NCBI RefSeq assembly: GCF_001677475.2
Contig: NZ_CP015229.1
Reading direction: 5' to 3' (one strand)
Length of the DNA: 64,000 nucleotides
Source of the DNA: Escherichia coli
GTDB taxonomy: Bacteria; Pseudomonadota; Gammaproteobacteria; Enterobacterales; Enterobacteriaceae
The notes under the pieces were generated by a model. It was not told where the DNA came from and made no database searches. It was given only the letters and a program-made list of their open reading frames with translations. The translations under genes and the position numbers were made by a program. Shown in pieces: positions 11,677 to 61,251 of this stretch (its first letter is position 1; every line of letters starts with the position of its first letter).

Positions 11677-12030
11677 TTATTTCAGATGGTTAATCAGCAT
11701 CGGAATCGCGTGTTCGACATGCTCAACGGAAAGCCCAAACGCCACTTTCCCTTCGGCGATCATTTTGGCGATATGTTCGTCTTTCGCTTTAATGCCTGGT
11801 TTGGCAATGGTGCAACTTTTGTTATAGCCAATCACCGCGATGGCAATCGACAATGCCGCGCCCGCACCGGTATTACACGCGCCGATGTAGTAATCCAGTT
11901 GCCCGGATTTCACTTTCATTGCCGCTTCCATGTCGTTGTGAATGAAAACTTCAAAACGGCCAGGAGCCGTCGCTTCAATGGTTTTTTTAATCTGCTCACG
12001 CTGTAAGCCTGCAACACCAATCTTTTTCAT
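11677..12030 (-). CDS. yhfU: Uncharacterised protein YhfU (117 aa)
   Basis: Track ORF 11677-12069; start trimmed to MKKIGVAGL; tightly spaced with php and yhfT. Confidence 0.75.
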   Translation of the reverse strand: MKKIGVAGLQREQIKKTIEATAPGRFEVFIHNDMEAAMKVKSGQLDYYIGACNTGAGAALSIAIAVIGYNKSCTIAKPGIKAKDEHIAKMIAEGKVAFGLSVEHVEHAIPMLINHLK

Positions 12031-12040
12031 GAGTCTGTCC

Positions 12041-12919
12041 TTATTGGAAAAATTGAGAGGGAGTTTCACGTAACATCACATCCACATCGGCCTGACTGAA
12101 TCCTGACTGGCGCAATTGCGGAATAAAGGTGGTCAATAAATAGTCATAGCCATAACCACCGTTGGCTTTTAAATGGGAGCGGCGCGTAATATCCATCGAC
12201 AGCATGACGCGGTTCAGCAACCCACGGTCGCGTAGCGCATGAAGCATCGCAATACGCATTTCGTCCGGGTAGTAACTGTTCTTACCAATGGTGTCGAACT
12301 GCACATACGCGCCGAGATCGATCATCTTCAAAATGTTGTCGAGGTTGTCTTTCAGATCGCAGTGACCAACGGTGACGCGCGAAAGATCAACTCCGTGGGC
12401 TTGCAGTAGCGCCAGTTGTTCCAGACCCATGGTGCTAAAAGAGGTATGCGTGGAGATCGGACGTCCGGTCTGGTTATGTGCCAGCGCGGCGGCAATAAAC
12501 ACCTTCTCTTCCAGCGGCGTAATCTTCCCTTCGCTGGAGCCGATCTCCGCGATGATCCCGGCTTTCAGCTCCGTGCCATCGATACCCTGTTCAATTTCAT
12601 CGACCATCTCCTGCGCCAGTTCCTGCACGCTGCGGGTCGCCACATGTTGCGGGAAAAACGCGTCCTGGTAATAACCGGTACAGGCCACCACGTTGATCCC
12701 GGTTTCGCGCATTACATCGAGCATAAATTGCGCATTGCGCCCCATATAACGGTTGGTCATCTCAATCACATTACGCACGCCCTGGGCCATCAGGTCGTTC
12801 ATCTCCTGGCAAATGAACGCATACTGATCAAGGCGGCAGTCCACGTTGTTTTTAAAGCCTGAGAGATCAATATGCAGATGCTCATGGGCGAGGGTGTAAC
12901 CCGTCGGATCAAAACTCAT
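12041..12919 (-). CDS. php: Phosphotriesterase homology protein (amidohydrolase-superfamily binuclear metal hydrolase)
   Basis: Track ORF 12041-12961; start trimmed to [21 protein letters not shown] (292 aa); HxH metal-binding motif visible at N-terminus. Confidence 0.85.
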
Positions 12920-14142
12920 AGGGTGTCTCCTGCAAACCGGAGGGAGGAAAGAAAAGAGCAACCATTTTGTGGCGGTGGCGCACGGAAAAATTCACACACG
13001 GTAGCCCCCACATCAGAAAGCGTGGTGCGCACACCGAGTTGCGTGTGGACCAGCCCTTGCTGATAAACCAGCACCGGCACCATTTCGCGGGTATGGTGGC
13101 TGTGACCGATTGTCGGATCGTTACCATGATCCGCCATCACGACCAGGCAATCATCTGGCTGCATCACCTCAACAAGCCGGGCAAGGTTTCGGTCAACGAC
13201 CTGCAAACGTTCGGCATAACGTGCGACGTCTTCTGCGTGACCAGCGAGGTCGGTTTCCTGGATATTGGTGCAAATAAACGCCGTCGGATGCGTGTTAAAT
13301 TCGTCGAGGGTGATATCCATAATCCGCTGGCTATCCACCAGGTTTTGCCAGCTCACGCCATAAGGATTGCTGGCAATATCCGCCACTTTCCCCACCAGCA
13401 CGGTTGGTACGCCCACTTCATACAGTTTTTGTGGCACCTGCACTTTATCATCGACACCGTAGCCCATATGCACGACCTGGAAGCCGTTGTCATAAGCGCC
13501 TGAACGCGGCGCATTGATACCAATAAAGCGCCCTTCTTTGCTTTCTGCGGCATCGAGAATGCGTTGACTGTCGGGTAACAGGCCGCCAAATGTAATGACC
13601 CGACCGACCTGTACCTGCTCACGCACAATACGACCAATTTTGATTGCGTCGTCAAAAGAGATCACAGAGAGATTGGCGGTGATGTTATAGACCTGGCCTA
13701 AATCCGCCTCGAGATTATCGCCAATCGCAACCGCCTGATTGACCCACAGAAATTGCAGATCATCGCCACGGCGCTCCACCTGCCAGCCTGCGGAAACTAA
13801 TGCCTGCTCAACACGGTCAATCACATCGCGAAAGGGCATCCGCAGCGGCGGTAACGGGCGCGTGCCTAAAATTTCCTGATGCCCCATAAAGGTATCGCCA
13901 CCTTCATGTTGCAGCTCTGCCACGCCCCAGGTTGCGGAGTCTGACGGCTGCATATCTCCAGGCGCATAACCTAATGCGTTGATTAGCCCCATTTTCTCCA
14001 GCATTGGTAGCTGCAAATGCGGCAACTGGCTCAGGATGTGACCACAGGTATTTGCCCCGGCATCCTGCGGACGCACCAACGTGACATCTTTCATTGCCCC
14101 TACGCCAAAGCTATCAATCACTAACACCACAAATCGCGCCAT
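12916..14142 (-). CDS. yhfW: Uncharacterised phosphopentomutase-like metalloenzyme
   Basis: 408-aa ORF; stop overlaps php start; contains ADHGNDPT motif typical of phosphopentomutase/alkaline-phosphatase superfamily. Confidence 0.8.
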
Positions 14143-15305
14143 TACGCCTCCAGAGGGTTGCCGAGGCTGTCATAACGACCCACAATCTCTGCCGCGCCAC
14201 GCTGAATACCAGACACCAGCACCACATCGCTACGGGTGACAAAAATCTGCGTGCGAAAACAGAGCACCACTGCACTGCTTACCGGATGCTCACCTGCCAG
14301 CGGCAGGGTGTAGTCGATACCGCTGTCATCCACGGCTTTGAGATATGTTTCAGTCACGCTTTGATTCTCTGGCGTAAACACCAACGCATGTTGCGCATGA
14401 CCACGACGGTAATAACCGCCGCCGTAGCAGTAGCTGTCACCACGGAAGTGATGGGAAATTTCGCTCAGCCAAAGCATCGCGATACGTTCAGGCTGGTCTC
14501 CCTGCTGGTTTACCGGAATCGTCCCCGTCAGTGCATGACCGGGTTCGGCATGAGTCACACCGTATTCCGCCAGTAATGGCAGCGAAGTGCAGCTGGTCGC
14601 TGAAGGCGCGTTCAGTTGCTCAATCGCAATACCAGATTTCGCCAGTTGATCCCGTACCTGTATCAGCGTGTGAAGATTCGGTGTCGGCAAAACTTTCCCG
14701 GCAGCCTCATCCCAAAGCAGGCAAGGGAAATGGGTTAGTCCGGCTAAATGCAGCCCCGGCAGTTTCTTAATTTCAGCAACCACCTCGTGCAGCGAATGCT
14801 GTACAAAACCGCTCTCCTGCCCCGGATAAAGAAAATCATCGTCGCTATAAACTTTGAGCAGCACAGACTGGATTCGCCCGGCCTTCACCGCCGCCGCAGA
14901 AACTTCCCGCGCTTTGTCGAGAGTAAACACGGTGATGACGTCGGTGCCCTGTTCAACGGCGTCAGCAACCTGATGACAAGGGATTTGTACCAGATGCCCC
15001 TGATGCGCCACCGGCAAACCAGCGCGGCGCATGACTCGCGCCTCTTTGTAATCCACCGCCACAATGCCGCTGTAGCCCAATGCCAGCAGTTTTTCCGCCA
15101 GCCACGGATTACGACCGAATTGTTTGGTCATCAGATACAGTTCAATGCCGTAAAGCCGTGCCGTCTCAATCAGCCGCTTACCGTTTTCCAGTATCTGATC
15201 CACGTCGATCACCCAGCTGTCCGGGGCGATCTTGCCCTGCTGCCACAGGCTTAGTGCGGCGGAAATCAGCGCCGGGTTCTGGCGTTTCAATGCTTCTACA
15301 AACAT
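14142..15305 (-). CDS. yhfX: Uncharacterised alanine-racemase-like (PLP fold type III) protein
   Basis: 387-aa ORF; 1-nt overlap with yhfW start; recognised as YhfX. Confidence 0.8.
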
Positions 15306-15388
15306 CTTGTTGCCTCGTTTCTGTTCCTTGAGTTAAATATTCATTTTTTTGAATATTTAGGTTGTGCGACGTGGATTTGTCGGGAGCT

Positions 15389-15751
15389 TCAAACCTCTTC
15401 GTTAGCAGCCATCCATAATCCATAAAGGTTGGCCAGCAAATAGCCTTCTTCACACGGGTTAACTTCCAATGCGAATTCCTTCAACAACACCTGATGCAAT
15501 TGCACAACGGCTTGCCAGTGGCTGGATTGCGCCAGCTCTGCCAGCAACTCGTTATCCAGTGGCTCAATTTCTTCACCACGGCGACTGCGCATAAGTGCAC
15601 TCGCCATATGTGTCATCGCCATCGTTCCTTGCTCACTGCGCACCGGCAGATGGCACTCTTTTTCCAGTACGTTGACGACCTGCATCATGCCTTTGCAGAT
15701 GTCCTTATCGATGACCCCTGCATCGCAAAGCAGGTTGAGTCTGGTTTCCAT
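15389..15751 (-). CDS. yhfY: Uncharacterised protein YhfY (120 aa)
   Basis: Track ORF 15389-15871; start trimmed to METRLNLLCDAG. Confidence 0.7.
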   Translation of the reverse strand: METRLNLLCDAGVIDKDICKGMMQVVNVLEKECHLPVRSEQGTMAMTHMASALMRSRRGEEIEPLDNELLAELAQSSHWQAVVQLHQVLLKEFALEVNPCEEGYLLANLYGLWMAANEEV

Positions 15752-15767
15752 TTCAGATGCCTTTGGT

Positions 15768-16673
15768 TTAATAACTGGGTTCCTGTTCCCCACTGACCAC
15801 TCGTTGTTGATGGGCAAGCAGGGCCTGTTTATCAACAACTGCACGCAGCAATTGTTGCATTGGGTAATCATCGACTCGCGTCAGGACCACGGCTTCGGTG
15901 GCCTGTAAAAATCGCGGATCGTCTGTGAGCGGCGTCGCTTCTAATCCCAGCATGGTCAGTTCGTTTTCCGCCACCACGTTCCAGATCACCGCATCAACAT
16001 CGCCTTTAACAATGCGTTGTAAACTCTCGTGATAAGAGAGATCGACACGTTCCACATCACTATCGCCAAAAAAGACATCGGTCATGATTTTCTGATCCGC
16101 CGAACGGTTATCCAGCCCCACGCGCTTCACGTTTGCGGACTCGCCTTTACGGCATATCAACTGGTGTTCGCCAACGTAGGTGTGCGGCCCCAATTCCAGC
16201 GCGAGGCATAACCCTTTTTGCGTGAGATAACTTTCCGCCGCCAGTCGGGAAACCACCGCCATGTCATACACGCCGTTAAGTAAACACTCCACGCGAATAT
16301 CCGCGCCGCGCATATGCGCATAGTAAAAAGGAATGCCATCAAACTGGGCTTTCAATCCGCTCGCTAAACCTTCGTACAAGCGGGTATAGGGCAAAGGCAT
16401 CGCACATACCACGTTGTTGATATCCACATGGCTCAGCAATGCTTTGTTATCCATCTCGACCAGATAACTGCCATTGCGCCCACGGCGTTCAATCCGTATC
16501 GCTCCGCTTGATTCCAGTGTTTTCAACGCTGCCTGCGTCAGGCCAACGGATGAACGGCATTCAGTTGCCAGCTCATCTATGGTTTTCAACCTATTACCGC
16601 ATTTTTCACCCAACAAATAACGGGCCAGCGTCGTGATAACGACGCCTTCTTTTTTGATAAACGTTCGACGCAT
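15768..16673 (-). CDS. yhfZ: Uncharacterised putative regulator YhfZ (N-terminal HTH-like region)
   Basis: 301-aa ORF; first gene of the yhfZ-to-yhfS co-directional cluster; AT-rich promoter region with palindrome upstream. Confidence 0.75.
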   Translation of the reverse strand: MRRTFIKKEGVVITTLARYLLGEKCGNRLKTIDELATECRSSVGLTQAALKTLESSGAIRIERRGRNGSYLVEMDNKALLSHVDINNVVCAMPLPYTRLYEGLASGLKAQFDGIPFYYAHMRGADIRVECLLNGVYDMAVVSRLAAESYLTQKGLCLALELGPHTYVGEHQLICRKGESANVKRVGLDNRSADQKIMTDVFFGDSDVERVDLSYHESLQRIVKGDVDAVIWNVVAENELTMLGLEATPLTDDPRFLQATEAVVLTRVDDYPMQQLLRAVVDKQALLAHQQRVVSGEQEPSY

Positions 16674-16702
16674 AATATATTTTCAATAAAATGAATGTTT
16701 AT

Positions 16703-16722
16703 ATCTTCATTAAAATGAAGAT
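16703..16722. promoter_or_regulatory. Near-perfect 20-bp palindrome in the yhfZ upstream region (candidate operator)
   Basis: atcttcatt-aa-aatgaagat, about 30 bp upstream of the yhfZ start codon. Confidence 0.4.
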
Positions 16723-16791
16723 AAGTGGCAACTGTGAGATGTGGAAACGGCGAGGCGCTTCACATTTTTTCGGATTATTGCAAATGAGGAT

Positions 16792-16817
16792 AAAAAAACC
16801 GGGTTTCCCCGGTTTTT
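16792..16817. terminator. Bidirectional intrinsic terminator downstream of trpS
   Basis: aaaaaaa-ccggg-tttc-cccgg-ttttt: stem-loop flanked by A-run and T-run, 15 bp past the trpS stop. Confidence 0.65.
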
Positions 16818-16832
16818 GGCATTAATGTTAAA

Positions 16833-17837
16833 TTACGGCTTCGCCACAAAACCAATCGCTTCGTACACCGCTTTTAGCGTACGGGAAGCGTGTGCGCTGG
16901 CTTTTTCCGCGCCATCTTTCATCACCTGTTGCAGGAAGGCTTCGTCATTGCGGAAACGGTGATAGCGTTCCTGCAATTCAGTCAGCATACCGGAAACGGC
17001 ATCAGCCACTTCGCCTTTCAGATGACCATACATCTTGCCTTCGAACTGTTTTTCCAGTTCCGGGATGCTCTGGCCCGTTACCGCAGAAAGGATATCCAGC
17101 AGGTTGGAAACGCCCGCTTTGTTCTGCACATCGTAGCGAACTACCGGCGGCTCGTCGGAGTCAGTGACCGCGCGTTTGATTTTCTTCACTACCGATTTCG
17201 GATCTTCCAGCAGGCCGATAACGTTATTGCGGTTATCGTCAGACTTGGACATCTTCTTGGTCGGCTCCAGCAGCGACATTACGCGCGCGCCAGATTTCGG
17301 AATAAACGGCTCCGGCACCTTAAAGATCTCACCATACAGCGCGTTGAAACGCTGAGCGATATCGCGGCTCAGTTCCAGGTGCTGTTTCTGGTCTTCACCC
17401 ACAGGTACCAGATTAGTTTGATACAGCAGGATGTCCGCAGCCATCAGCACCGGATAGTCAAACAGACCAGCGTTGATGTTCTCGGCATAACGCGCAGATT
17501 TATCTTTAAACTGCGTCATGCGGCTCAGTTCGCCGAAGTAGGTATAGCAGTTCAGTGCCCAGCCTAACTGCGCATGTTCCGGTACGTGGGACTGAACAAA
17601 AATGGTGCTTTTCTCAGGATCGATACCACAAGCCAGATACAAGGCCAGCGTATCCAGCGTCGCTTTACGCAGCTTCTGTGCATCCTGGCGCACGGTGATC
17701 GCGTGTTGGTCAACGATACAGTAAATGCAATGGTAGTCATCCTGCATGTTTACCCACTGACGCAGCGCACCCATGTAGTTACCAATGGTCAATTCACCTG
17801 AGGGCTGTGCGCCACTAAAAACGATGGGCTTAGTCAT
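16833..17837 (-). CDS. trpS: Tryptophan--tRNA ligase
   Basis: 334-aa ORF starting [21 protein letters not shown]; class I aaRS with KMSKS motif (KMSKS present). Confidence 0.95.
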
Positions 17838-18588
17838 TTTTCGATTCCTGATTTTCGCTATGCGGAAGCCCTAATGCGGGCAGAAGGTCATTTATAGACT
17901 GATAAATTACATCAGGCTGGCTGAGATCGATAGCCTCGCCGTAGTTATATCCGTAGGTTAAGCCAACGGATGGGCAACCTGCCGCTTTTGCCGCCTGAAT
18001 ATCATTGCGTGAGTCGCCGACAAACAGCATCTGTTGTGGGGCAATTCCCATCCGCTCAGCCACCAGTAACAGCGGGTCCGGATGCGGTTTTTTGTTTTGC
18101 ACATCATCACCGCCGATAACCACACTGAAGTATTTGGCGATATCTAAGGCTTCGAGCAGCGGCGCGACGAACGGCGTCGGTTTGTTGGTGACCAGGCCTA
18201 GCGGCAGGCCTTTAGCCTGCAACGCGCCCAACGTATCGGCAACGTGTGGGAACAAAAACGTCCCCTCTTCGGCAACCTCGCCATAGTAGCGATCGAACAG
18301 TTTACGCAGAATACGTATCTGTTCTTCTGCCGGAATGTCGTCATCAACGGGCGGTTTACCCATTGTTTTACGCTGAGTCGCACGTTCCTGACGCGCCCAG
18401 GTCAATGCGCGCTCCATCAGAACATCTGCGCCGTTACCAATCCAGGTAATAACGCGTTCTTCACCTGCGACGGGCAACTCCAGCGCATACAGCGCCATAT
18501 CTACCGCAGCAGCAAGACCAGGAGCACTGTCGACCAGCGTACCATCAAGATCAAAAGCGACGCCGCGAATATCTTCAAACTTATTCAT
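17830..18588 (-). CDS. gph: Phosphoglycolate phosphatase (HAD superfamily)
   Basis: 252-aa ORF; HAD DxDGTLVDS motif near N-terminus; 8-nt overlap with trpS start. Confidence 0.9.
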
Positions 18589-19258
18589 GACTTACCTTTG
18601 CCAGTTCACTGCGCATTTCATCAATGACTTTTTTGTAGTCTGGCTGGTCGAAGATTGCCGAACCGGCGACGAACATATCCGCGCCCGCCGCAGCGATTTC
18701 GCCAATGTTGTTCACCTTCACACCACCGTCCACTTCCAGACGAATGTCAAAGCCAGACTCGTCGATACGACGACGTACTTCGCGCAGTTTATCCAGTGTT
18801 TGAGGAATGAAAGACTGACCGCCGAAACCAGGATTGACGGACATCAGCAGGATCACATCCAGCTTATCCATCACGTAATCCAGATAGCTCAGCGGTGTCG
18901 CCGGGTTAAATACCAGACCCGCTTTACAGCCATTTTCTTTAATCAGTTGCAGCGTGCGGTCAACATGCTCGGAGGCTTCTGGATGAAAGGTAATGATGCT
19001 GGCACCAGCGGCAGCGAAATCAGGCACAATGCGATCGACGGGTTTCACCATCAGATGTACGTCGATAGGGGCGGTAATGCCGTAGTTACGCAAGGATTTC
19101 AGCACCATTGGCCCAATCGTCAGATTGGGAACATAGTGGTTATCCATGACGTCAAAATGCACGACATCAGCGCCAGCTGCCAGGGCTTTTGCGGTATCTT
19201 CACCCAGGCGGGCAAAATCAGCCGACAGAATTGAGGGGGCAATCAAATACTGTTTCAT
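18581..19258 (-). CDS. rpe: Ribulose-phosphate 3-epimerase
   Basis: 225-aa ORF; recognised Rpe sequence; overlaps gph start. Confidence 0.9.
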
Positions 19259-19275
19259 CCGCTTCTCCTTGAGAA

Positions 19276-20112
19276 TTATTTTTTCGCGGGTGAAACGACT
19301 CCTGGTTTGTACAAAGCCAGCAGTTCGTCCACCTTTTTACGTGTGCCGCCGTTGCTGCTTATACTGCGTCGAACTTTGACGACATGCAATTTTGCGCGCT
19401 GATACCACTCACGCGTTAACATCGTATCGTGATTGGAGATCAGCACAGGAATATGGCGATCAACCAGACCTTCGGCGATCTCCGCCAGATGCGCTTGTTG
19501 TTCAAGCGTAAAACTGTTTGTGTGATACGCCGTAAAGTTGGCGGTCGCAGACAGCGGTGCATAAGGCGGATCGCAATAGACGACGGATGCATCATCTGCG
19601 CGCGCCATGCTATCGGCGTAAGACTCACAATAGAAAAAGGCATTCTGCGCTTTTTCAGCGAAGTGATACAACTCTGCTTCCGGGAAATAGGGTTTTTTGT
19701 AGCGGCCAAACGGCACGTTAAACTCACCGCGCAGATTGTAACGACACAGGCCGTTGTAACCGTAGCGGTTCAAATATAAAAACAGTACCGCCCGACGGAA
19801 CGGATCCTGGCTTTTGTTGAACTCTTCGCGGAACTGATAGTAAACCTCGGCGCAATTTGTTTCGGGAACAAACAGCTCGCGTGCGGCCTGTACGTACTCA
19901 TCAGTACGCATTTTCACAATGTTATAGAGACTGATCAGGTCGCTATTGATATCGGCAAGGATATAACGAGAAAAGTCGGTGTTGAGAAACACCGACCCGG
20001 CACCTACAAAAGGCTCAACCAGACATTCGCCCTTGGGCAAATGCCGTTTAATATCATCAAGCAGGGGATACTTGCCCCCTGCCCACTTCAAAAAAGCGCG
20101 ATTTTTCTTCAT
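19276..20112 (-). CDS. dam: DNA adenine methyltransferase (GATC)
   Basis: 278-aa ORF; DPPY catalytic motif present ([11 protein letters not shown]). Confidence 0.95.
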
Positions 20113-20218
20113 GCTGACTAACTAATTACACCTTCTCCGGCTGTGGAGAAAGCTCCGACAGCATCCAGCGCTTCAGGCAGCTCCCGCAACGATAACCCAT
20201 TGCGGGAGATAACCTTGA

Positions 20219-21505
20219 TTACTTCAGATCGGCCTGTACCTGACGCAGCGGTTTCGCCCACGGGTTTTTGGCCTGGACATCTGCTGGCAATGTAGATACC
20301 GCTTTTTTCGCCTCTTCTTTCGAAGCGTACACGCCAGAAACCAGGACATACCACGGCTGACCATTACGCGTCGTTTCATAGACAACGTAGTTTTTCAGAT
20401 TCTCTTTCTTCGCCCAACCGTTCAGGTTGTCGTAGTTAGAGGAACTGCTCAGCTGCAGAGTGTAATGGCTGGACGGTGCCGATTTCAACGAACCAACATT
20501 ACCTGCGGTCTTCGCCCCAGCAGCGGGTGTTGCTGTGGTTTGCGCCGGGGATGCCGTCTGTACTGGAGCCGTAGTCGCCGTCTCTTTTGGTGCTGGCGTA
20601 GAAGTCGCAGCCGGTGCCTTCGTGCTCGCCACAGGGGCAGCTGGTTCAGTACGCTTCGGCGTCTGTGCTACCGGCTTCGGCTCCGTTTTCACGGTTGCTT
20701 GCGGTTTTTTCGGTTCAATCACCGCCTGCTGACGAGCTGGGCGCGTAGTGGCCGGACGTTCAGCGGTTTGCGTTTTCGCCGTGTCACGCGATGCATTGCC
20801 ATTGCGAACAGGCGCGACAGTCGCGGGTTCAGTCGGCAACGTGGAATTGACCGCCACATTGTTCAGCTGTTGCTGATTTTGTGGCTGGGTCAGCGCATTG
20901 TTCAGGTCACCCTGCACTTCAACACGTTGTTGACCATCCGTTGCCGCCGGGGTTTGCCCTTGAGTCGGCGTAGAAGAGATCGGTGGCAGAGAAACATCCT
21001 GCTGAGTATTTTCCGCAGACGTGGTTCCCGGCGCTGGCTGCACGCCATTCGCCTGATCGGTCGCATTGCCAGCAAGATCAATACTCTTCTCGCCAGACGC
21101 GGTTTGATCGCTGGAAGAGGTCGAGGGGGCTTTTAGCGCAGAACCGATACCGATGATCAACAGCAGTAGAACCAGAATGCCGACGCCCATCATCATATAC
21201 TGACGAGAAGCGGGTTTACTGGCTGCTTTTTTGCGCTTACGCGGACGACGCTCTACGCGCTCTTCATCCACGGTTTCATCTTCGGATTCGTCAATTTCTT
21301 CTTCGATTTCCGGTTCCTCATTGCGCTCTTTTTGCGCACGAGTCGGACGGCGATCGTCAGTGTCATCAAGTTCAATATCATCAAAATTGATCTGCGGTTC
21401 GCCACGTTCAGTACGCTCAGAACGTTCAGAAGATTGACGAGAACGACCAGTACGACGATCGCTGGGATCGGGTTTCAGCTCGTCTTCTGGTTTGAATTCA
21501 TCCAT
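20219..21505 (-). CDS. damX: Cell-division protein DamX (SPOR domain, low-complexity Pro/Thr/Ala/Gln-rich linker)
   Basis: 428-aa ORF; acidic N-terminus, single TM, long low-complexity linker, C-terminal SPOR-like domain. Confidence 0.9.
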
Positions 21506-21596
21506 TTAACACCCCACTAAAAGGTTAATGCTTACCACGTTGCAATTAACCTGAAGCTAATAGACCGCTTGATAAGCGGCCTGACCTTTCTTGTTG

Positions 21597-22685
21597 TTAC
21601 GCTGATTGACAATCGGCAATGGCGTTAAGAACAAGCTCGTGCGAAACGCCGCTGCGAACTTCACTCTTACCAATTGCCAACGGAAGAATTAAGCGTATCT
21701 CTCCCGCAAGGACTTTCTTGTCACGCAGCATATGCGGTAAATACGCCTGCGCGGACATTTCGCGCGGCCCATTGACCGGTAACCCAGCCCGCTTGAGCAG
21801 GGTTATAATACGCTGCGTTTCGGCAGAACTAAACTGCCCGAGACGTTCCGACGTCCGCGCCGCCATCACCATACCCGCAGCGACCGCTTCACCATGTAAC
21901 CAATTGCCATACCCCATTTCAGCTTCAATGGCATGACCAAAGGTGTGTCCCAGATTCAGTAAAGCACGTAACCCGGTTTCGCGCTCGTCGGCGGCGACAA
22001 CTTCTGCTTTCAGCTCACAACAACGGCGGATACAGTACGCCATTGCCGGACCGTCCAGACGCAACAACGCATCCAGATTCTCTTCCAGCCAGTTGAAAAA
22101 CGCACCGTCAAGAATAATGCCGTATTTGATGACTTCTGCCAGCCCCGACGCTAACTCACGCGGGGGAAGCGTTTTCAGACAGTCGAGATCCACCACCACT
22201 GAAGCAGGCTGGTAGAACGCGCCAATCATGTTTTTACCGAGGGGATGGTTGACCGCAGTTTTGCCGCCAACGGAGGAATCGACCTGCGACAGTAACGTCG
22301 TCGGGACTTGAATGAAACGTACGCCGCGCTGATAACTCGCCGCCGCGAAGCCGGTCAGATCGCCCACTACGCCGCCGCCAAGCGCCACCAACGTAGTATC
22401 GCGACCATGCGGCTTTTGTAACAACGCCGTAAAGACGGTATCGAGTACAGCCAGGCTTTTATACTGCTCGCCGTCAGGGAGGATAACGCTATCGACGTTA
22501 ACACCCGCCTGTTCAAGTACGCCGCGGACCTTATCGAGATACAGAGGAGCCAGGGTTTCGTTGGTGACCAACATGACCTGCTCGCCCGATTTCAGCGGTA
22601 AGAATGAAGCTGGTTCATTAAACAAACCAGATGCGATGGTAATTGGGTAACTACGTTCCCCGAGAGTAACGACAATCCTCTCCAT
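21597..22685 (-). CDS. aroB: 3-dehydroquinate synthase
   Basis: 362-aa ORF; recognised AroB sequence. Confidence 0.95.
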
Positions 22686-22741
22686 AACGCGACATCCACC
22701 TTAATTACTGTACCCGCAGACGAGTGTATATAAAGCCAGAA

Positions 22742-23263
22742 TTAGTTGCTTTCCAGCATGTGAATAATCTGGTTAGCGACCACTTTAGCGCTTTGATCAT
22801 CAGTACGAATGGTCACGTCGGCAATCTCTTCATACAGCGGATTGCGTTCATTGGCCAACGCTTCCAGAACTTCACGCGGCGGTGTTTCAACGTGCAGCAA
22901 CGGGCGTTTTTTATCACGCTGCGTGCGTGCAAGTTGCTTTTCGATGGTCGTTTCAAGATAAACGACAACGCCACGAGCGGAAAGACGGTTACGCGTTTCA
23001 CGGGATTTCACAGAGCCGCCGCCAGTAGCCAGCACAATACCCTGTTTCTCGGTCAACTCATTGATGACCTTTTCTTCGCGATCGCGGAAGCCTTCTTCGC
23101 CTTCTAAATCGAAAACCCAGCCCACATCAGCTCCGGTTCGTTTCTCAATCTCTTGATCGGAATCGTAAAATTCCATATTGAGTTGTTGAGCTAACTGGCG
23201 CCCAATAGTGCTTTTTCCGGCACCCATAGGCCCAACCAGAAAGATATTGCGTTTCTCTGCCAT
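22742..23263 (-). CDS. aroK: Shikimate kinase I
   Basis: Track ORF 22742-23464; start trimmed to [19 protein letters not shown] (173 aa); Walker [10 protein letters not shown]. Confidence 0.9.
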
Positions 23264-23663
23264 TTTTTCGGTACTACTAAGACTATTCGTTAATGATAAA
23301 CCCGCTTCGCTCAGAGAGCGCCGCAGGACATGAACTGAAACCTCATAAGATATTGCGAGAGTCAGACTGAAAATTATCTCAATACTCCAGCGGGTTTGGC
23401 AACTGAATAAATCACCCATCCCTCTGCATATCTGGTCGCTGCAAGCGCGCTGCCTTGCTACCACCGCTCTGGCGATAAATCACCGGGTAAGATTAGCGTA
23501 AAAAAGACAGCAAAATGCCGCCTGAATGATAAATCATCATCATGGAACGCAGGCAGCGAAGAGCACCAACTCTCAAATCGGTACTCCTTGTATGCTAAAT
23601 ACCTGCGCGCGTCAAATAGATGAAACACGTTCAGCGTAAAAACATTACCGCTTTTACGGCTGT

Positions 23664-24902
23664 TTACTCACTGGAAACCAGTCGTGGCGTGATAAACACC
23701 ACTAACTCGCGTCGTTCATCTTCTTTTCCGTCATGACGAAATAATTGCCCGAACCAGGGAATGTCGCCAAGCAACGGTACGCTATCCTGACCCGATTTAT
23801 TTTTACGGGTAAAAATGCCGCCCAGCGCCAACGTTTCTCCGCTTTTGACCTCGACCTGCGTTTCGATCTCCTGCTTATCAATCGCCAGCACTTCCCCATC
23901 AGCCTGCTGTAGCACCTGCCCCGGAACGTTCTGGCTGATGTGTAATTTCAGCCGGATGCGACCTTTATGTAACACCGTGGGCGTGACCTCCATCCCCAGG
24001 ACGGCCTCTTTAAATTCCACCGACGTCGCGCCACTTTCCCCGCTGGAAACCTGATATGGAATTTCGCTCCCCTGTTTAATGCTGGCAGGCTGAAGATGTG
24101 AGGCCAGCAGACGCGGACTGGCGATAATATCCAGCTGCTGTTTTTGTTCGAGCGCGGAAAGCTCAAGATCCAGCAAACGTCCGTTGATGCGTCCAATGTT
24201 AAAACCGACATGCGTTGTCGCCGTCGCTACGGAGAGGTCACTGCCAAGCGTGGTGACTTGCCCAACGCCACCAGCGTGTTGCGCATCAGCCAACGTCCAT
24301 TTCACGCCTAACTCACGCAAACTTTTTTCATTAATGGTGACAATATGCGCCGACAGCTCAACCTGCCCGACCGGCAGATCCATTTGCGCTACCCACTGTT
24401 CAAGCGCGCTTAACGCCGTTTTGTTATCTCGCAGCAAAAGGCGATTGGTGCGTTTATCGACGGTCATACTCCCTTTGGCACTCAGTAGCTTCTCCCCCGC
24501 TTTCGCCAGTTCTCCCGCGTCGGCGTATTGCAGGGTTATACTGCGATTTTCCAGCGGCAGATTTGCCTGCGCCCGCGCCTGCTCCGCCTCCTGACGGGCG
24601 ATATTGTCATTCTGCCAGGCAACGGAATGCACCGAGAGAATGTTGCCCTCCTGACGCGTTATCAGTCCGGCGCTTTTCACTACAGTTTGTAGTGCTTGCT
24701 TCCAGGGAACATCTGTTAGATGTAACGACACCGTACCGCTGACGTCTGGCGATACGACCAGGTTCAACTTCTCCTGTTCAGCCAGCGCCTGCAACACCTG
24801 AGCTACCGGAACGTCATCCACCATCAGCGTCACTTTTTGCGGCTTTGCCGCCTGTACGCCGGGTATCAGCATCAACAGTAGTGCGGCTATCCATTGCTTC
24901 AT
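23664..24902 (-). CDS. hofQ: Secretin-family outer-membrane protein (PilQ/ComE homologue) for DNA uptake
   Basis: 412-aa ORF with signal peptide; last gene of hofMNOPQ. Confidence 0.85.
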   Translation of the reverse strand: MKQWIAALLLMLIPGVQAAKPQKVTLMVDDVPVAQVLQALAEQEKLNLVVSPDVSGTVSLHLTDVPWKQALQTVVKSAGLITRQEGNILSVHSVAWQNDNIARQEAEQARAQANLPLENRSITLQYADAGELAKAGEKLLSAKGSMTVDKRTNRLLLRDNKTALSALEQWVAQMDLPVGQVELSAHIVTINEKSLRELGVKWTLADAQHAGGVGQVTTLGSDLSVATATTHVGFNIGRINGRLLDLELSALEQKQQLDIIASPRLLASHLQPASIKQGSEIPYQVSSGESGATSVEFKEAVLGMEVTPTVLHKGRIRLKLHISQNVPGQVLQQADGEVLAIDKQEIETQVEVKSGETLALGGIFTRKNKSGQDSVPLLGDIPWFGQLFRHDGKEDERRELVVFITPRLVSSE

Positions 24903-25218
24903 TTGTATCTCCTTGCCGTTGCCACAACCAGTGTGGCGGTTCGCAGTTTGTCCCGGTTCCCAGCGTTAGTGCGTCTGGCGTCAGCTGTAAGATCGTCCAG
25001 CCGTTTTCCAGCACATCGTTTTGCTGCACCCGTCGCCATTTTTTTTGCCCATCTTTTATTACACCGATGATGCGCTCGCCTCGCCCTACCATCCCCTGAT
25101 AGCGCCACTGGCTAAGTTCGCTAATCCGGCATAGATCTTCCGGCGGTTTAAAAGGGTCACGCATACCGGTTAAAAGGCACAATGCAATACCTGCCAACAA
25201 CCAGCGTTTAACCCTCAT
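24814..25218 (-). CDS. hofP: PilP-like DNA-utilisation protein
   Basis: Track ORF 24814-25257; start trimmed to MRVKRWLLAGIALCLL (134 aa); overlaps hofQ. Confidence 0.7.
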   Translation of the reverse strand: MRVKRWLLAGIALCLLTGMRDPFKPPEDLCRISELSQWRYQGMVGRGERIIGVIKDGQKKWRRVQQNDVLENGWTILQLTPDALTLGTGTNCEPPHWLWQRQGDTNEAMDSRTTVDADTRRTGGKAAKSDADGG

Positions 25219-25648
25219 GCGGCGTCTCCAGTTGTAGCGTGAACAAAAGGTCATCACCTTCCACGCTTAACGAAAAACGGCTCACTCTGACGTTGCGCTC
25301 TGCCAGCCGTGTAAATGCCAACGGCACTGCTTCCCACAGCGTTTTCAACGCCAACTCGCCTCCCTGCGCGGATGGATGCCAGTAAACCAGTTGTGCGTCG
25401 GGCAACTGAAAATCCAGTGGCGAAAAGAGCAGCGTTTTTTCCTCGCTGAAGGGGGTGGAGTCAACCAGGCGATACAGTGCGGCCCACTGCTGGTGATGAC
25501 TTGCCCGTAGTCGAATTAATGCGTCGCTCTCTTCCTGGTGTGTCGATGACAGAAAAATGAGCGTAACTAACATCAGCAACCAGACTGCCCAGCAAAGCTG
25601 GCGGAGGCGGGGTGATGTGGCGAACCACCAGTCAAAGAGCATGTCCAT
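25208..25648 (-). CDS. hofO: PilO-like DNA-utilisation protein
   Basis: 146-aa ORF; overlaps hofP and hofN. Confidence 0.7.
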   Translation of the reverse strand: MDMLFDWWFATSPRLRQLCWAVWLLMLVTLIFLSSTHQEESDALIRLRASHHQQWAALYRLVDSTPFSEEKTLLFSPLDFQLPDAQLVYWHPSAQGGELALKTLWEAVPLAFTRLAERNVRVSRFSLSVEGDDLLFTLQLETPHEG

Positions 25649-26171
25649 CGCTAACCTTCCTTGTTAACTGATACTCAAATTGCCAGCGTCCCTGCGCATC
25701 CTGCTGCGTGGCTCCCCTCTGATTGAGATGAAAAGATGCATCCTGGCGGAGTGACGTTTCTAGTGCGTTTAACGCGGTAATGCTTGTTGTCAGCCCCTTG
25801 ATCTCCAGCGTTCCCTGCTGCCAGCTTATCGTTGTCAGCCAGGCATGTTCGGGTAAAAGCGCCGCCAGTGCTTCCAGCGCAGATTGCCAGTCGCGGGTAA
25901 ATTCTCGCTGGCGCTGCCGTTGCAAACGCTGTTCGCGTAACTGCTGTTGCTCCAGCAAACGTGGTTTCGTTATCTGTAAGCTGTGGGCGAGTTGTTGTTC
26001 CGCCTGAAGCAAAACGGTGTTTACGCGTGCTTCGGCGTTGCTTGTCAGACGCAGTATTAGCGTTATCCCGACGGCCAGCAGCAGAGGTGCAACGAACATC
26101 AGCAACCAGAAACGAAGAAAAGCGGTCCGGCGTTGCTGTCGCCAGGGCAAAAAATTAATTGGCGGGTTCAT
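25632..26171 (-). CDS. hofN: PilN-like DNA-utilisation protein
   Basis: 179-aa ORF with N-terminal TM helix. Confidence 0.75.
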   Translation of the reverse strand: MNPPINFLPWRQQRRTAFLRFWLLMFVAPLLLAVGITLILRLTSNAEARVNTVLLQAEQQLAHSLQITKPRLLEQQQLREQRLQRQRQREFTRDWQSALEALAALLPEHAWLTTISWQQGTLEIKGLTTSITALNALETSLRQDASFHLNQRGATQQDAQGRWQFEYQLTRKVSDGHAL

Positions 26172-26950
26172 CAGTACGCCTTCCCAAGCGCCAGCCCCAG
26201 CGCGATGGCAAAGTCTCCACCTGGCGGCGGTAGCGGCGGCTGACGAACAGAAACGGCCTCCCAGGGGTCAAATCCGCCTTCGCCACATATCGCGACGCTT
26301 TCGGGATCAACGGATAACGCTGCCGCCAGCTCCTTCGCGCTAGTCATCCCCACCGCCAGTTTGCGCCCCCAGCGATAGCGCGTCGCCCACAGCCACTGTT
26401 CGTTATCACGCCAGGCCAGACATTGCTGATGAGAAGGCAAAAAAGGCAGGAATCGCTGTAATGCACTGGCATCCGGGGTGATCGCGCTAACATGAACGCG
26501 CAACCTTTCTGCCAGAGTAAGCAGCATTGCCAGCTCTTTGCTTTGCGCGGCAGTCACGTTATAAGCGGGGCTGAGTGAGTCTTCGCTGTAATCGAAGCGC
26601 AGGGAGTCCGGATCCATATCCAGCTCGCGGGCCATCGTCCCGGACAGCCAGGCCGTTTGCTCCCTCTCACCAAGGGACAACGACGGGCGCGGAAATGACC
26701 GCTGTAATGTGCGACTGGCGGGAAACGCCAACATAATATGATGACGCTGCGGCAGTTCGCGACTCCACGGTAACAACGTGTTAGCCAGCCGCTGCACATC
26801 GACAATCCGCCCATCTTTGATAATGTCGTTCTCCAGTGGCAACCGCCACCAGCGTTGCAATAAGCATTCTTTTGCGCCCCGCACGATAGCAACCGCTACC
26901 GCTTCTTGCTGTTGTAAATGCAAACCAATTTGCCAGATCTTAAATGCCAT
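26171..26950 (-). CDS. hofM: PilM-like DNA-utilisation protein
   Basis: Track ORF 26171-26977; start trimmed to MAFKIWQIGLHLQQQ (259 aa); divergent from mrcA. Confidence 0.8.
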   Translation of the reverse strand: MAFKIWQIGLHLQQQEAVAVAIVRGAKECLLQRWWRLPLENDIIKDGRIVDVQRLANTLLPWSRELPQRHHIMLAFPASRTLQRSFPRPSLSLGEREQTAWLSGTMARELDMDPDSLRFDYSEDSLSPAYNVTAAQSKELAMLLTLAERLRVHVSAITPDASALQRFLPFLPSHQQCLAWRDNEQWLWATRYRWGRKLAVGMTSAKELAAALSVDPESVAICGEGGFDPWEAVSVRQPPLPPPGGDFAIALGLALGKAY

Positions 26951-27069
26951 TGTGATGATCTCCTTATCACCCGTCACTCTGACGGGTATATCAATGCGTC
27001 TGGCTTGCCTTTATACTACCGCGCGTTTGTTTATAAACTGCCCAAATGAAACTAAATGGGAAATTTCCA

Positions 27070-29622
27070 GTGAAGTTCGTAAAGTATTTTTTGATCCTTG
27101 CAGTCTGTTGCATTCTGCTGGGAGCAGGCTCGATTTATGGCCTATACCGCTACATCGAGCCACAACTGCCGGATGTGGCGACATTAAAAGATGTTCGCCT
27201 GCAAATTCCGATGCAGATTTACAGCGCCGATGGCGAGCTGATTGCTCAATACGGTGAGAAACGTCGTATTCCGGTTACGTTGGATCAAATCCCACCGGAG
27301 ATGGTGAAAGCCTTTATCGCGACGGAAGACAGCCGCTTCTACGAGCATCACGGCGTTGACCCGGTGGGGATCTTCCGTGCAGCAAGCGTGGCGCTGTTCT
27401 CCGGCCATGCGTCACAAGGGGCGAGTACCATTACCCAGCAGCTGGCGAGAAACTTCTTCCTCAGTCCAGAACGCACACTGATGCGTAAGATTAAGGAAGT
27501 CTTCCTCGCGATTCGCATTGAACAGTTGCTGACGAAAGACGAGATCCTCGAGCTTTATCTGAACAAGATTTACCTCGGTTACCGCGCCTATGGTGTTGGT
27601 GCTGCGGCACAAGTCTATTTCGGTAAAACGGTCGACCAACTGACGCTGAACGAAATGGCGGTGATAGCCGGGCTGCCGAAAGCGCCTTCCACCTTCAACC
27701 CGCTCTACTCGATGGATCGTGCCGTCGCGCGGCGTAACGTCGTGCTGTCGCGGATGCTGGATGAAGGGTATATCACCCAACAACAGTTCGATCAGACACG
27801 CACTGAGGCGATTAACGCTAACTATCACGCGCCGGAGATTGCTTTCTCTGCGCCGTACCTGAGCGAAATGGTGCGCCAGGAGATGTATAACCGTTATGGC
27901 GAAAGTGCCTATGAAGACGGTTATCGCATTTACACCACCATCACCCGCAAAGTGCAGCAGGCCGCACAGCAGGCGGTACGTAATAACGTGCTGGACTACG
28001 ACATGCGCCACGGCTATCGCGGCCCGGCAAATGTGCTGTGGAAAGTGGGCGAGTCGGCGTGGGATAACAACAAGATTACCGATACGCTGAAGGCGCTGCC
28101 GACTTATGGTCCGCTGCTGCCTGCCGCAGTCACCAGCGCCAATCCTCAGCAAGCGACGGCGATGCTGGCGGACGGGTCGACCGTCGCATTGAGCATGGAA
28201 GGCGTTCGCTGGGCGCGTCCTTACCGTTCGGATACTCAGCAGGGACCGACACCGCGTAAAGTGACCGATGTTCTGCAAACGGGTCAGCAAATCTGGGTTC
28301 GTCAGGTTGGCGATACATGGTGGCTGGCACAAGTGCCGGAAGTGAACTCGGCGCTGGTGTCGATCAATCCGCAAAATGGTGCCGTTATGGCGCTGGTCGG
28401 TGGCTTTGATTTCAATCAGAGCAAGTTTAACCGCGCCACCCAGGCACTGCGTCAGGTGGGTTCCAACATCAAACCGTTCCTCTATACCGCGGCGATGGAT
28501 AAAGGTCTGACGCTGGCAAGTATGTTGAACGATGTGCCAATTTCCCGCTGGGATGCAGGTGCCGGTTCTGACTGGCAGCCGAAAAACTCGCCGCCACAAT
28601 ATGCTGGTCCAATTCGCTTACGTCAGGGGCTAGGTCAGTCGAAAAACGTGGTGATGGTACGCGCAATGCGGGCGATGGGCGTCGACTACGCTGCAGAATA
28701 TCTGCAACGCTTCGGCTTCCCGGCACAAAACATTGTCCACACCGAATCGCTGGCGCTGGGTTCAGCGTCCTTCACTCCAATGCAGGTGGCGCGCGGCTAC
28801 GCGGTCATGGCGAACGGCGGCTTCCTGGTGGACCCGTGGTTTATCAGCAAAATTGAAAACGATCAGGGCGGCGTGATTTTCGAAGCGAAACCGAAAGTAG
28901 CCTGCCCGGAATGCGATATTCCGGTGATTTACGGTGATACGCAGAAATCGAACGTGCTGGAAAATAACGATGTTGAAGATGTCGCTATCTCCCGCGAGCA
29001 GCAGAATGTTTCTGTACCAATGCCGCAGCTGGAGCAGGCAAATCAGGCGTTAGTGGCGAAGACTGGCGCGCAGGAGTACGCACCGCACGTCATCAACACT
29101 CCGCTGGCATTCCTGATTAAGAGTGCTTTGAACACCAATATCTTTGGTGAGCCAGGCTGGCAGGGTACCGGCTGGCGTGCAGGTCGTGATTTGCAGCGTC
29201 GCGATATCGGCGGGAAAACCGGTACCACTAACAGTTCGAAAGATGCGTGGTTCTCGGGTTACGGTCCGGGCGTTGTGACCTCGGTCTGGATTGGCTTTGA
29301 TGATCACCGTCGTAATCTCGGTCATACAACGGCTTCCGGAGCAATTAAAGATCAGATCTCAGGTTACGAAGGCGGTGCCAAGAGTGCCCAGCCTGCATGG
29401 GACGCTTATATGAAAGCCGTTCTTGAAGGTGTGCCGGAGCAGCCGTTGACGCCGCCACCGGGTATTGTGACGGTGAATATCGATCGCAGCACCGGGCAGT
29501 TAGCTAATGGTGGCAACAGCCGCGAAGAGTATTTCATCGAAGGTACGCAGCCGACACAACAGGCGGTGCACGAGGTGGGAACGACCATTATCGATAATGG
29601 CGAGGCACAGGAATTGTTCTGA
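27070..29622 (+). CDS. mrcA: Penicillin-binding protein 1A (bifunctional glycosyltransferase/transpeptidase)
   Basis: Track ORF 27046-29622; GTG start giving MKFVKYFLILAV (850 aa); transglycosylase and SxxK transpeptidase regions recognisable. Confidence 0.9.
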   Translation: MKFVKYFLILAVCCILLGAGSIYGLYRYIEPQLPDVATLKDVRLQIPMQIYSADGELIAQYGEKRRIPVTLDQIPPEMVKAFIATEDSRFYEHHGVDPVGIFRAASVALFSGHASQGASTITQQLARNFFLSPERTLMRKIKEVFLAIRIEQLLTKDEILELYLNKIYLGYRAYGVGAAAQVYFGKTVDQLTLNEMAVIAGLPKAPSTFNPLYSMDRAVARRNVVLSRMLDEGYITQQQFDQTRTEAINANYHAPEIAFSAPYLSEMVRQEMYNRYGESAYEDGYRIYTTITRKVQQAAQQAVRNNVLDYDMRHGYRGPANVLWKVGESAWDNNKITDTLKALPTYGPLLPAAVTSANPQQATAMLADGSTVALSMEGVRWARPYRSDTQQGPTPRKVTDVLQTGQQIWVRQVGDTWWLAQVPEVNSALVSINPQNGAVMALVGGFDFNQSKFNRATQALRQVGSNIKPFLYTAAMDKGLTLASMLNDVPISRWDAGAGSDWQPKNSPPQYAGPIRLRQGLGQSKNVVMVRAMRAMGVDYAAEYLQRFGFPAQNIVHTESLALGSASFTPMQVARGYAVMANGGFLVDPWFISKIENDQGGVIFEAKPKVACPECDIPVIYGDTQKSNVLENNDVEDVAISREQQNVSVPMPQLEQANQALVAKTGAQEYAPHVINTPLAFLIKSALNTNIFGEPGWQGTGWRAGRDLQRRDIGGKTGTTNSSKDAWFSGYGPGVVTSVWIGFDDHRRNLGHTTASGAIKDQISGYEGGAKSAQPAWDAYMKAVLEGVPEQPLTPPPGIVTVNIDRSTGQLANGGNSREEYFIEGTQPTQQAVHEVGTTIIDNGEAQELF

Positions 29623-29625
29623 TTA

Positions 29626-29648
29626 AAAAGGCGCTTCGGCGCCTTTTC
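29626..29648 (+). terminator. Intrinsic terminator downstream of mrcA
   Basis: aaaaa-ggcgc-ttcg-gcgcc-tttt hairpin 4 nt after the TGA stop. Confidence 0.7.
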
Positions 29649-29677
29649 AGTTTACTGACAAAGCGCACTTGTTTATG

Positions 29678-29773
29678 CCGGATACGGGTGAACGCGTTAT
29701 CCGGCTAACAAAATCGTGAAAATTCAATATATTGCAGGAACCCCATAAGCCTGATAAGCGTTGTGCATCAGGC
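29678..29773. repeat. Two REP-like palindromic units between mrcA and nudE
   Basis: gccggatacgggtgaacgcgttatccggc (29678-29706) and gcctgataagcgttgtgcatcaggc (29749-29773). Confidence 0.5.
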
Positions 29774-29786
29774 AAACTTCACGCAT

Positions 29787-30347
29787 TTACACTCGCCCCT
29801 GCCCTTTCAACCATTCGCGCACGAGGAAAAGCGCACTGACATTGCGCGCTTCATTGAAATCAGGGTCTTCCAGCAAATCCATCATATGAGCCAGCGGCCA
29901 GCGCACCTGTGGTAGCGGCTCTGGCTCATCGCCTTCCAGCGATTCCGGGTAGAGATCTTGCGCTACCACGATATTCATTTTGCTGGAAAAGTAAGACGGT
30001 GCCATGCTGAGCTTCTTCAAAAAAGTCAGATCGTTCGCACCAAATCCAACCTCTTCTTTTAGCTCGCGGTTAGCGGCTTCGTAGACGCTTTCACCCGGAT
30101 CAATTAATCCTTTCGAAAAACCTAATTCGTAGGATTCAGTTCCCACTGCGTATTCGCGGATCAGGATCAGGTGATCGTCCACAATCGGTACAATCATCAC
30201 TGCTTCCCGGTTGGTTGGACGCATTCGTTCATAAACACGCCGCACGCCATTGCTGAACTCCAGATCCACACTTTCGACGGTAAATAGTCGGGAACGGGCT
30301 ACAGTTTCAACATTCAGAATGGTGGGTTTTTGTAATGATTTGCTCAT
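29787..30347 (-). CDS. nudE: ADP compounds hydrolase (Nudix)
   Basis: 186-aa ORF; Nudix box GESVYEAANRELKEEVG. Confidence 0.85.
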   Translation of the reverse strand: MSKSLQKPTILNVETVARSRLFTVESVDLEFSNGVRRVYERMRPTNREAVMIVPIVDDHLILIREYAVGTESYELGFSKGLIDPGESVYEAANRELKEEVGFGANDLTFLKKLSMAPSYFSSKMNIVVAQDLYPESLEGDEPEPLPQVRWPLAHMMDLLEDPDFNEARNVSALFLVREWLKGQGRV

Positions 30348-30666
30348 CGTGGGATCTATGCTGTGAAATCAGCGGTTATTGTGCGATATCGGACACGCTT
30401 TCGGCAATGTGAATTGCATGTTATTTACATTTATGTAACTTAATAAATAATCGTCCTCAAATCAAATTAAAAGTCAATAGGTTGAAATAACTCCAGGAAT
30501 TTGCTGATATTCCGCCTTCAGAGGGTTTGCTATGATCAGCGGTTACTGTGATGTGCTTAATGATGCTCAAGTTAAACTCCACGCTTGCCGATAGCCAACC
30601 GCAGAATCATGTATTGTGTCCGGTGCGACTGACCACGCCTGACAGACTAAGTAAGATGGGGAAAGC

Positions 30667-54458: not shown

Positions 54459-54467
54459 CGAGCTTCC

Positions 54468-56885
<2,418 letters not shown>

Positions 56886-60231: not shown

Positions 60232-61251
<1,020 letters not shown>

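Follow-up and report, generated by a model that had tools for sequence, protein, structure and literature searches.

Very probably, the middle of the damX gene in the 64-kb stretch of Escherichia coli DNA analysed here (the window) encodes a disordered, two-part periplasmic tether, the long plus-strand open reading frames (ORFs) opposite it are shadow ORFs, and the rare length changes of the gene come about via short direct repeats. The observation is real but ordinary: the segment is the known DamX tether, and the antisense ORFs are a side effect of codon usage. The tether would link the single DamX membrane helix to the C-terminal SPOR domain binding septal peptidoglycan, and would consist of a membrane-proximal half with conserved short motifs and a distal half rich in Ala, Thr, Pro and Lys. 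The distal half would act as a flexible spacer tolerating substitutions and in-frame indels. Length changes would arise through slipped-strand or microhomology-mediated events between direct repeats of 8–12 nt; they would survive only in the two disordered regions of the protein and be rare in E. coli. Spacer function, slippage and any selection on tether length are what we infer here. The practical consequences are small: the annotation of this stretch as damX only is right, and the long antisense ORFs should not be called genes. The allele census adds a little: DamX length was near-fixed in E. coli, with indels confined to two disordered regions.

The damX locus

The interval flagged in the earlier note, 20400-21150, lay wholly within the minus-strand ORF at 20219..21505, and the coordinates and sequence facts given there for damX were correct. 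Annotated damX matched this DNA in 5,425 of 5,426 complete E. coli genomes, at identities of at most 99.5%. The genes dam (19276..20112) and aroB (21597..22685), named from the RefSeq annotation of matching loci, flanked it on the same strand, and that annotation agreed with the position of damX in the aroK-aroB-damX-dam-rpe operon region. Pfam placed the C-terminal SPOR domain of DamX (PF05036) at aa 345-418 (E=1.9e-14). PDB 2LFV ('Protein damX') was the sole solved structure matched, over residues 335-428, and an identical 428-aa DamX protein was already among public E. coli records. No Rfam family reached its gathering score on either strand of the whole window, which leaves the region unexplained by any known structured RNA. 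The gene and the parts of its product were as follows.

20219..21505, minus strand: damX coding sequence, 428 aa and stop, cell-division SPOR protein (ORF list, Pfam, complete-genome matches, synteny)
20222..20494, minus strand: SPOR domain, residues 338-428 (Pfam; AlphaFold2 pLDDT >90 with beta-sheet and helices at 337-427; PDB 2LFV)
20495..20800, minus strand: distal linker half, residues 236-337, A/T/P/K-rich, of lowest complexity and most variable in sequence and length
20801..21136, minus strand: membrane-proximal linker half, residues 124-235, predicted disordered (pLDDT <55), with conserved short motifs
21137..21199, minus strand: transmembrane helix, residues 103-123, L/I/G/V-rich (AlphaFold2 helix 101-123, pLDDT 85-90)
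21200..21505, minus strand: cytoplasmic N-terminal region, residues 1-102 (E 21%, R 17%, D 13%; pLDDT 40-60)

The wider surroundings were less well matched. Over positions 12000-32000, the best of the 5,426 complete E. coli genomes was only 98.0% identical over 20 kb, and separate 160-nt damX tiles matched separate genomes at 100%. Sequence identity suggests that this part of the window is a mosaic or comes from a poorly represented lineage. The draft E. coli assembly GCA_027552025.1 differed from the window by 2 mismatches in 5,287 nt. An artificial or a Shigella origin of the window, which the 98.0% figure had raised, was rejected on this match.

A predicted disordered linker between membrane helix and SPOR domain

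E. coli DamX is described in the literature as bitopic, with a cytoplasmic N-terminus, a single transmembrane helix and a periplasmic linker, and septal localisation and denuded-glycan binding have been reported for it. An AlphaFold2 model of DamX was built on 54 family members. The predicted helix at 101-123 and its hydrophobic composition fit the bitopic topology, which is itself taken from the literature. Linker residues 124-336 were modelled at pLDDT 35-54 without secondary structure, and the distal half likewise at pLDDT 35-52; low pLDDT fits disorder without proving it. The predicted disorder of residues 124-336 agrees with the view of the linker in the literature.

Composition pointed the same way. 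Across residues 124-337 (20495-21136), Ala (17%), Thr (16%), Pro (12%) and Gln (10%) together made up 56% of the sequence, which bears out the earlier description of a Pro/Thr/Ala/Gln-rich linker. Sliding entropy had its minimum, 2.5-2.9 bits, at aa 271-330, and the plus strand over 20400-20850 reached a GC content of 0.59-0.61 and an AT skew down to -0.35. Low complexity, the lack of predicted structure and the variable length and sequence among homologues are those of an intrinsically disordered spacer, with the exception of the motif-bearing proximal half. As modelled, residues 124-337 are the known disordered periplasmic tether of DamX.

Antisense open reading frames

Both plus-strand ORFs were present precisely as the earlier note had listed them, with the compositions that it gave. 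They are set out below with five longer shadow ORFs (of 420, 395, 373, 258 and 225 aa), which lay inside other, longer ORFs of the window.

20465..21136, plus strand: 223-aa shadow ORF in the codon-aligned antisense frame, ATG start, R 26%, L 13%, not a gene
20535..20732, plus strand: 65-aa shadow ORF in another antisense frame, A 22%, V 18%, G 18%, not a gene
54186-55448, plus strand: 420-aa antisense shadow ORF
27412-28599, minus strand: 395-aa antisense shadow ORF
60796-61917, plus strand: 373-aa antisense shadow ORF
45570-46346, minus strand: 258-aa antisense shadow ORF
16890-17567, plus strand: 225-aa antisense shadow ORF

In a codon-aligned antisense frame, stop codons are possible only opposite the sense codons TTA, CTA and TCA, and these are rare in E. 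coli. damX contained no TTA and no TCA, and CTA only at codons 113 and 124. The TAG stop of the 223-aa ORF (21134-21136) was the reverse complement of the Leu124 CTA codon, and the frame was open for 305 codons because no TTA, CTA or TCA occurs downstream of codon 124. The open runs in the three antisense frames measured 305, 88 and 77 codons. Synonymous shuffles within damX gave 270 ± 58, 96 ± 24 and 74 ± 16 codons (p = 0.35, 0.57 and 0.54, respectively), and in none of the three frames was a length beyond the expectation from codon usage found by this means.

The ordinary shuffle p values and the existence of five longer shadow ORFs indicate that low complexity did not cause the length of the 223-aa ORF, only its odd composition. 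Compositional bias, which had been named as the cause of both ORFs, thus stood in part: their Arg/Leu and Ala/Gly/Val compositions mirrored the codons of the linker, whereas the 223-aa length came from the rarity of TTA, CTA and TCA. The Arg/Leu-rich 'protein' is the reverse complement of Ala, Thr, Pro and Gln codons. Statistical treatments of shadow ORFs (Mir et al. 2012) are cited in PMC7457138.

It is extremely improbable that the 223-aa ORF (or the 65-aa one) is a genuine overlapping gene inside damX. The 223-aa ORF is long, uninterrupted and begins with ATG, it was open in all sampled E. coli alleles, and E. coli does have antisense and nested genes (PMC7457138, PMC12350097). However, its length was within the range of the synonymous shuffles, and TTA or TCA codons broke it in E. 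albertii (codon 214), Salmonella (codons 176 and 337) and Citrobacter (codon 338). Substitutions were overwhelmingly nonsynonymous in the 223-aa frame. The ratio of synonymous to nonsynonymous changes was 24:5 in the sense frame and 2:27 in the antisense frame against E. coli GF4-3, 54:20 and 14:60 against E. albertii, and 87:56 and 20:123 in a third comparison; no purifying selection in the own frame of this codon-aligned ORF was found in the substitution counts. Despite its high Arg content, the 223-aa product gave no Pfam match, nor did the 65-aa one (E<=0.1). In the promoter and terminator scan, the numbers of sites equalled the shuffle expectation, and no promoter-like site stood upstream of the plus-strand ORFs or was otherwise suitably placed for them. 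A literature search found no antisense product of damX, and the sole published nested candidate in the gene lies on the sense strand, at 21253-21405. The antisense ORFs thus had neither excess length, intact conservation, selection in their own frame (for the 223-aa ORF) nor similarity to a family, and the earlier judgement that they are almost certainly not genes has good support. Some weak transcription or translation antisense to damX may occur.

The PIRT-Seq candidate 'in-damX' is unrelated to the flagged ORFs, as the primers used to tag it map it to the sense strand. According to these primers, given in the supplement, it corresponds to a 50-aa minus-strand ORF at 21253-21405 with a GTG start, on the damX strand and out of frame. 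'in-damX' was chosen for SPA tagging and was seen in one selection replicate only (PMC12350097). The text of that paper is silent on whether its western blot was positive.

Repeats in damX

The linker had been described as carrying reiterated short motifs. At the protein level this held in part: QTA occurred three times and PAA, APV, TPA and TEP in three or four copies each, and tripeptide re-use showed a modest excess over shuffles (32 against 19 ± 3.9, p about 0.002), whereas the pattern PA..T..A occurred once only and tandem repeats were lacking. At the DNA level, re-use of 7-10-mers in the linker was not significant against chance (p 0.08-0.2). Tandem Repeats Finder at a minimum score of 30 reported no repeat in 20495-21136, so that head-to-tail repeats were not found there, and the DNA repeats of the linker were only scattered ones of at most 16 nt. 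The description of the linker as 'repeat-rich' was rejected for DNA, tandem and dispersed searches having given short matches at chance level only.

The only true tandem repeat in damX lay beyond the flagged interval, in the cytoplasmic part of the protein.

21404-21431, minus strand: 9-nt tandem repeat in 3.1 copies (SER-SER-TER), codons about 26-34 (Tandem Repeats Finder)

Three copies of this repeat were found in 5,395 of the 5,425 genomes, two copies in 19 (in two registers) and four in 11. Variation was thus present in 30 genomes (0.55%), which were of diverse backgrounds, for example E24377A and O157 493/89. This is the only damX site behaving as a slippage-prone repeat.

Length variation among complete genomes

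Among 40 complete genomes spread over the identity ranking, 38 had a damX of 1,287 nt, one had lost 9 nt in the N-terminal 9-nt repeat and one had gained 12 nt in the linker. In addition, 160-nt linker queries were run as tiles against 5,425 complete E. coli genomes. Tiles of this size and junction queries revealed indel alleles better than a whole-gene identity ranking. The census is reliable for indels of at least 9 nt; for those of 3-6 nt, the check covered only the roughly 175 rows sampled. The four tiles were recovered as follows.

20815-20974 and 20975-21136: every genome at 95% identity or above
20655-20814: 90-95% identity in 8 genomes
20495-20654: 90-95% identity in 915 genomes, below 90% in 3

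Every tile was covered to at least 80% in all genomes, and no large linker deletion was found in the 5,425 complete genomes. In tile 20495-20654, identity alone cannot exclude indels of at least 9 nt; about 9 of the 915 genomes in its 90-95% band were inspected for length and all were unchanged, and on these about 9 the band is driven by single-nucleotide changes. That tile aside, and besides the 12-nt allele treated below, an indel of at least 9 nt is possible in no more than 8 genomes of a single tile. In the spread sample of about 175 rows, GF4-3 was the only one with a linker indel. About 99% of the 5,425 complete genomes shared one common linker length.

Tile 20495-20654, at the SPOR-proximal end of the linker, far surpassed the other linker tiles in SNP diversity (915 genomes at 90-95% identity, against 0-8 elsewhere). 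In GF4-3, the one divergent allele compared there, the changes were mostly synonymous.

The 12-nt allele

The only linker indel seen in complete genomes concerns a 12-nt unit.

20588..20599, minus strand: 12-nt unit ACGCCAGCACCA (TPAP), codons 303-306 (alignments)

The resulting 432-aa allele carried the second unit, ACGCCAGCCGCA (TPAA), after S302, between 20599 and 20600; the two units were identical at 10 of 12 positions. As shown by a junction query, the insert was present in at least 39 of the 5,425 complete genomes, E. coli HS included. The inserted DNA was identical in HS, GF4-3 and E. albertii. The two differences from the adjacent unit and the sharing of the insert indicate that the allele is old and shared rather than newly duplicated. 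The long form was present in E. albertii, and protein alignments placed a four-residue insert at this site in E. marmotae (TPVA) and in Escherichia sp. E4694 (TPAA) as well; the homologous site in Salmonella was polymorphic by 4 aa (425 against 429 aa). By these sequences, the common form of 428 aa seems to be the derived one, produced by deletion.

Rare deletion and duplication alleles

Other length alleles were found one by one. Duplications in the linker added EP in a 430-aa allele of Shigella flexneri, and VAP together with EP in a 433-aa allele. In the larger set of proteins from public assemblies, single-member clusters showed in-frame deletions of 13-39 aa. Eight linker deletions in proteins named as or grouped with E. 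coli removed residues 137-162, 186-213, 201-213, 289-311, 305-325, 297-325 (on two backgrounds) and 288-326. A ninth allele lacked about residues 219-242 and was also altered at the C-terminus, and one E. albertii allele had a similar linker deletion of 40 aa. Two alleles, one of them from Shigella sonnei, lacked residues 60-81 of the cytoplasmic acidic region. None of the rare deletion alleles had lost part of the transmembrane helix or the SPOR domain. Two stretches of the linker stood out.

20528..20644, minus strand: distal linker core, residues 288-326, hit by five rare E. coli deletion alleles (21-39 aa) and one of E. albertii
20857..20905, minus strand: exact 10-nt direct repeats CTGAACAATG at 20896-20905 and 20857-20866, bounding the 13-aa deletion of residues 201-213

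The alleles of the distal core were P0010, P0011, P0014, P0015, P0018 and P0020, and one and the same 29-aa deletion occurred on two allele backgrounds. The junctions that were read as DNA lay in short direct repeats. In the window sequence, repeated 8-mers stood at codons 201 and 214, at the two ends of the stretch missing from the allele P0006 (residues 201-213), and the junction of a 399-aa allele was formed by imperfect 10-nt direct repeats, CACC(G/C)GCTGC, 87 nt apart. At the other junctions, short repeated peptides (PAA, APV) were seen in the alignment. The 399-aa allele was present in several independent assemblies and is therefore not an assembly error. In-frame indels are tolerated in both disordered regions of DamX; they probably arise at microhomologies, are rare and have not spread.

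The earlier note had taken the region for a possible hotspot of in-frame length variation, to be refuted by a linker perfectly conserved in length across strains. The multi-strain comparison of damX did show linker indels. The hotspot itself was weakly supported: indels do occur and cluster in the disordered regions, but they are rare and about 99% of genomes have one length. A literature search on indel polymorphism of damX returned unrelated papers only.

A stronger version of the hotspot, in which the linker would slip often as a variable-number repeat locus and so give strains DamX proteins of functionally different length, is very improbable. In-frame linker indels of +12, +6 and +9 nt and the deletions of 13-39 aa exist, the 29-aa deletion recurs on two backgrounds, and the site after S302 is polymorphic in Salmonella too. 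Yet the linker has no tandem repeat and no significant re-use of DNA k-mers, large deletions were lacking among the complete genomes with their nearly uniform linker length, and the deletion alleles are single-member clusters. The 12-nt insert, being an old shared allele, does not speak for recurrent slippage. Frequent differences in copy number, as such a locus would have, were found neither at the linker 12-nt site (at least 39 of 5,425) nor at the N-terminal 9-nt repeat (30 of 5,425).

Family comparison and conserved motifs of the proximal half

To compare the parts of the protein, 54 DamX-family representatives with 35-96% identity to the window protein were aligned. Their transmembrane helices measured 19-21 aa and their SPOR domains 87-91 aa, the linkers 147-264 aa and the cytoplasmic regions 34-102 aa. 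Gaps in the alignment clustered at residues 251-320 of the window protein.

The near-constant linker length within E. coli may simply reflect how little the species has diverged and the absence of real repeats, length being effectively neutral and under no stabilising selection as a ruler spanning the periplasm. We regard this as a real possibility, if a somewhat doubtful one. The range of linker lengths in the family fits it, as do the many indels separating E. coli from Salmonella and Citrobacter and the isolates with deletions of up to 39 aa, one such allele being present in several independent assemblies. On the other hand, Escherichia, Salmonella and Citrobacter have kept the linker to a net 214-222 aa through several indels, and the alleles with large deletions have not spread.

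Three blocks of the membrane-proximal half were conserved, at residues ~171-182, ~191-205 and 221-229 (STLPTEPAT), corresponding to about 20819-20993 of the window. Block identity across the 54 representatives was 0.49-0.66, close to the level of the SPOR domain, and the blocks were near-invariant among Escherichia, Salmonella and Citrobacter. The motifs stay conserved in homologues down to ~35% identity, yet AlphaFold2 predicts disorder for them. They may be binding motifs. It is possible, though on balance unlikely, that residues ~166-235 (window ~20801-21010) form an unrecognised periplasmic interaction module and that the distal half is a length-tolerant spacer, with a net length kept close to 215-220 residues in Escherichia, Salmonella and Citrobacter. 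Class A PBPs or divisome partners might, for example, be the targets of this putative module. Judged by the conservation of the proximal motifs, the DamX linker is not merely a passive spacer. These motifs are the only lead here with some biological value, the region usually being treated as an unstructured spacer.

Comparison with known systems

The window allele encodes the same protein as E. coli DamX elsewhere, with the aroB-damX-dam synteny, the domain order and the 428 aa of about 99% of complete genomes. From DamX of K-12 it differs at three residues, S130, A187 and A252, and otherwise in nothing substantial.

The antisense ORFs have the same cause as other shadow ORFs in codon-aligned antisense frames of bacterial genes, where TTA, CTA or TCA is needed for a stop. 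Only their composition is unusual by comparison, and this is due to the Ala/Thr/Pro/Gln-rich segment encoded opposite them.

The length alleles resemble microhomology and slippage indels in other disordered regions, in that junctions lie in 10-nt direct repeats and the 9-nt repeat gains and loses units. They differ from true contingency loci, since the frequencies in damX are far lower, well below 1% per site, and the polymorphic tandem repeat is cytoplasmic and not in the linker.

The DamX tether itself resembles those of FtsN and DedD, other inner-membrane SPOR proteins with unstructured periplasmic linkers. The DedD tether is disordered by NMR, and among DamX, FtsN and DedD the tether of DamX is the longest (PMC7642682). 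Unlike this comparison set, the DamX tether has a proximal half with motifs conserved across the DamX family.
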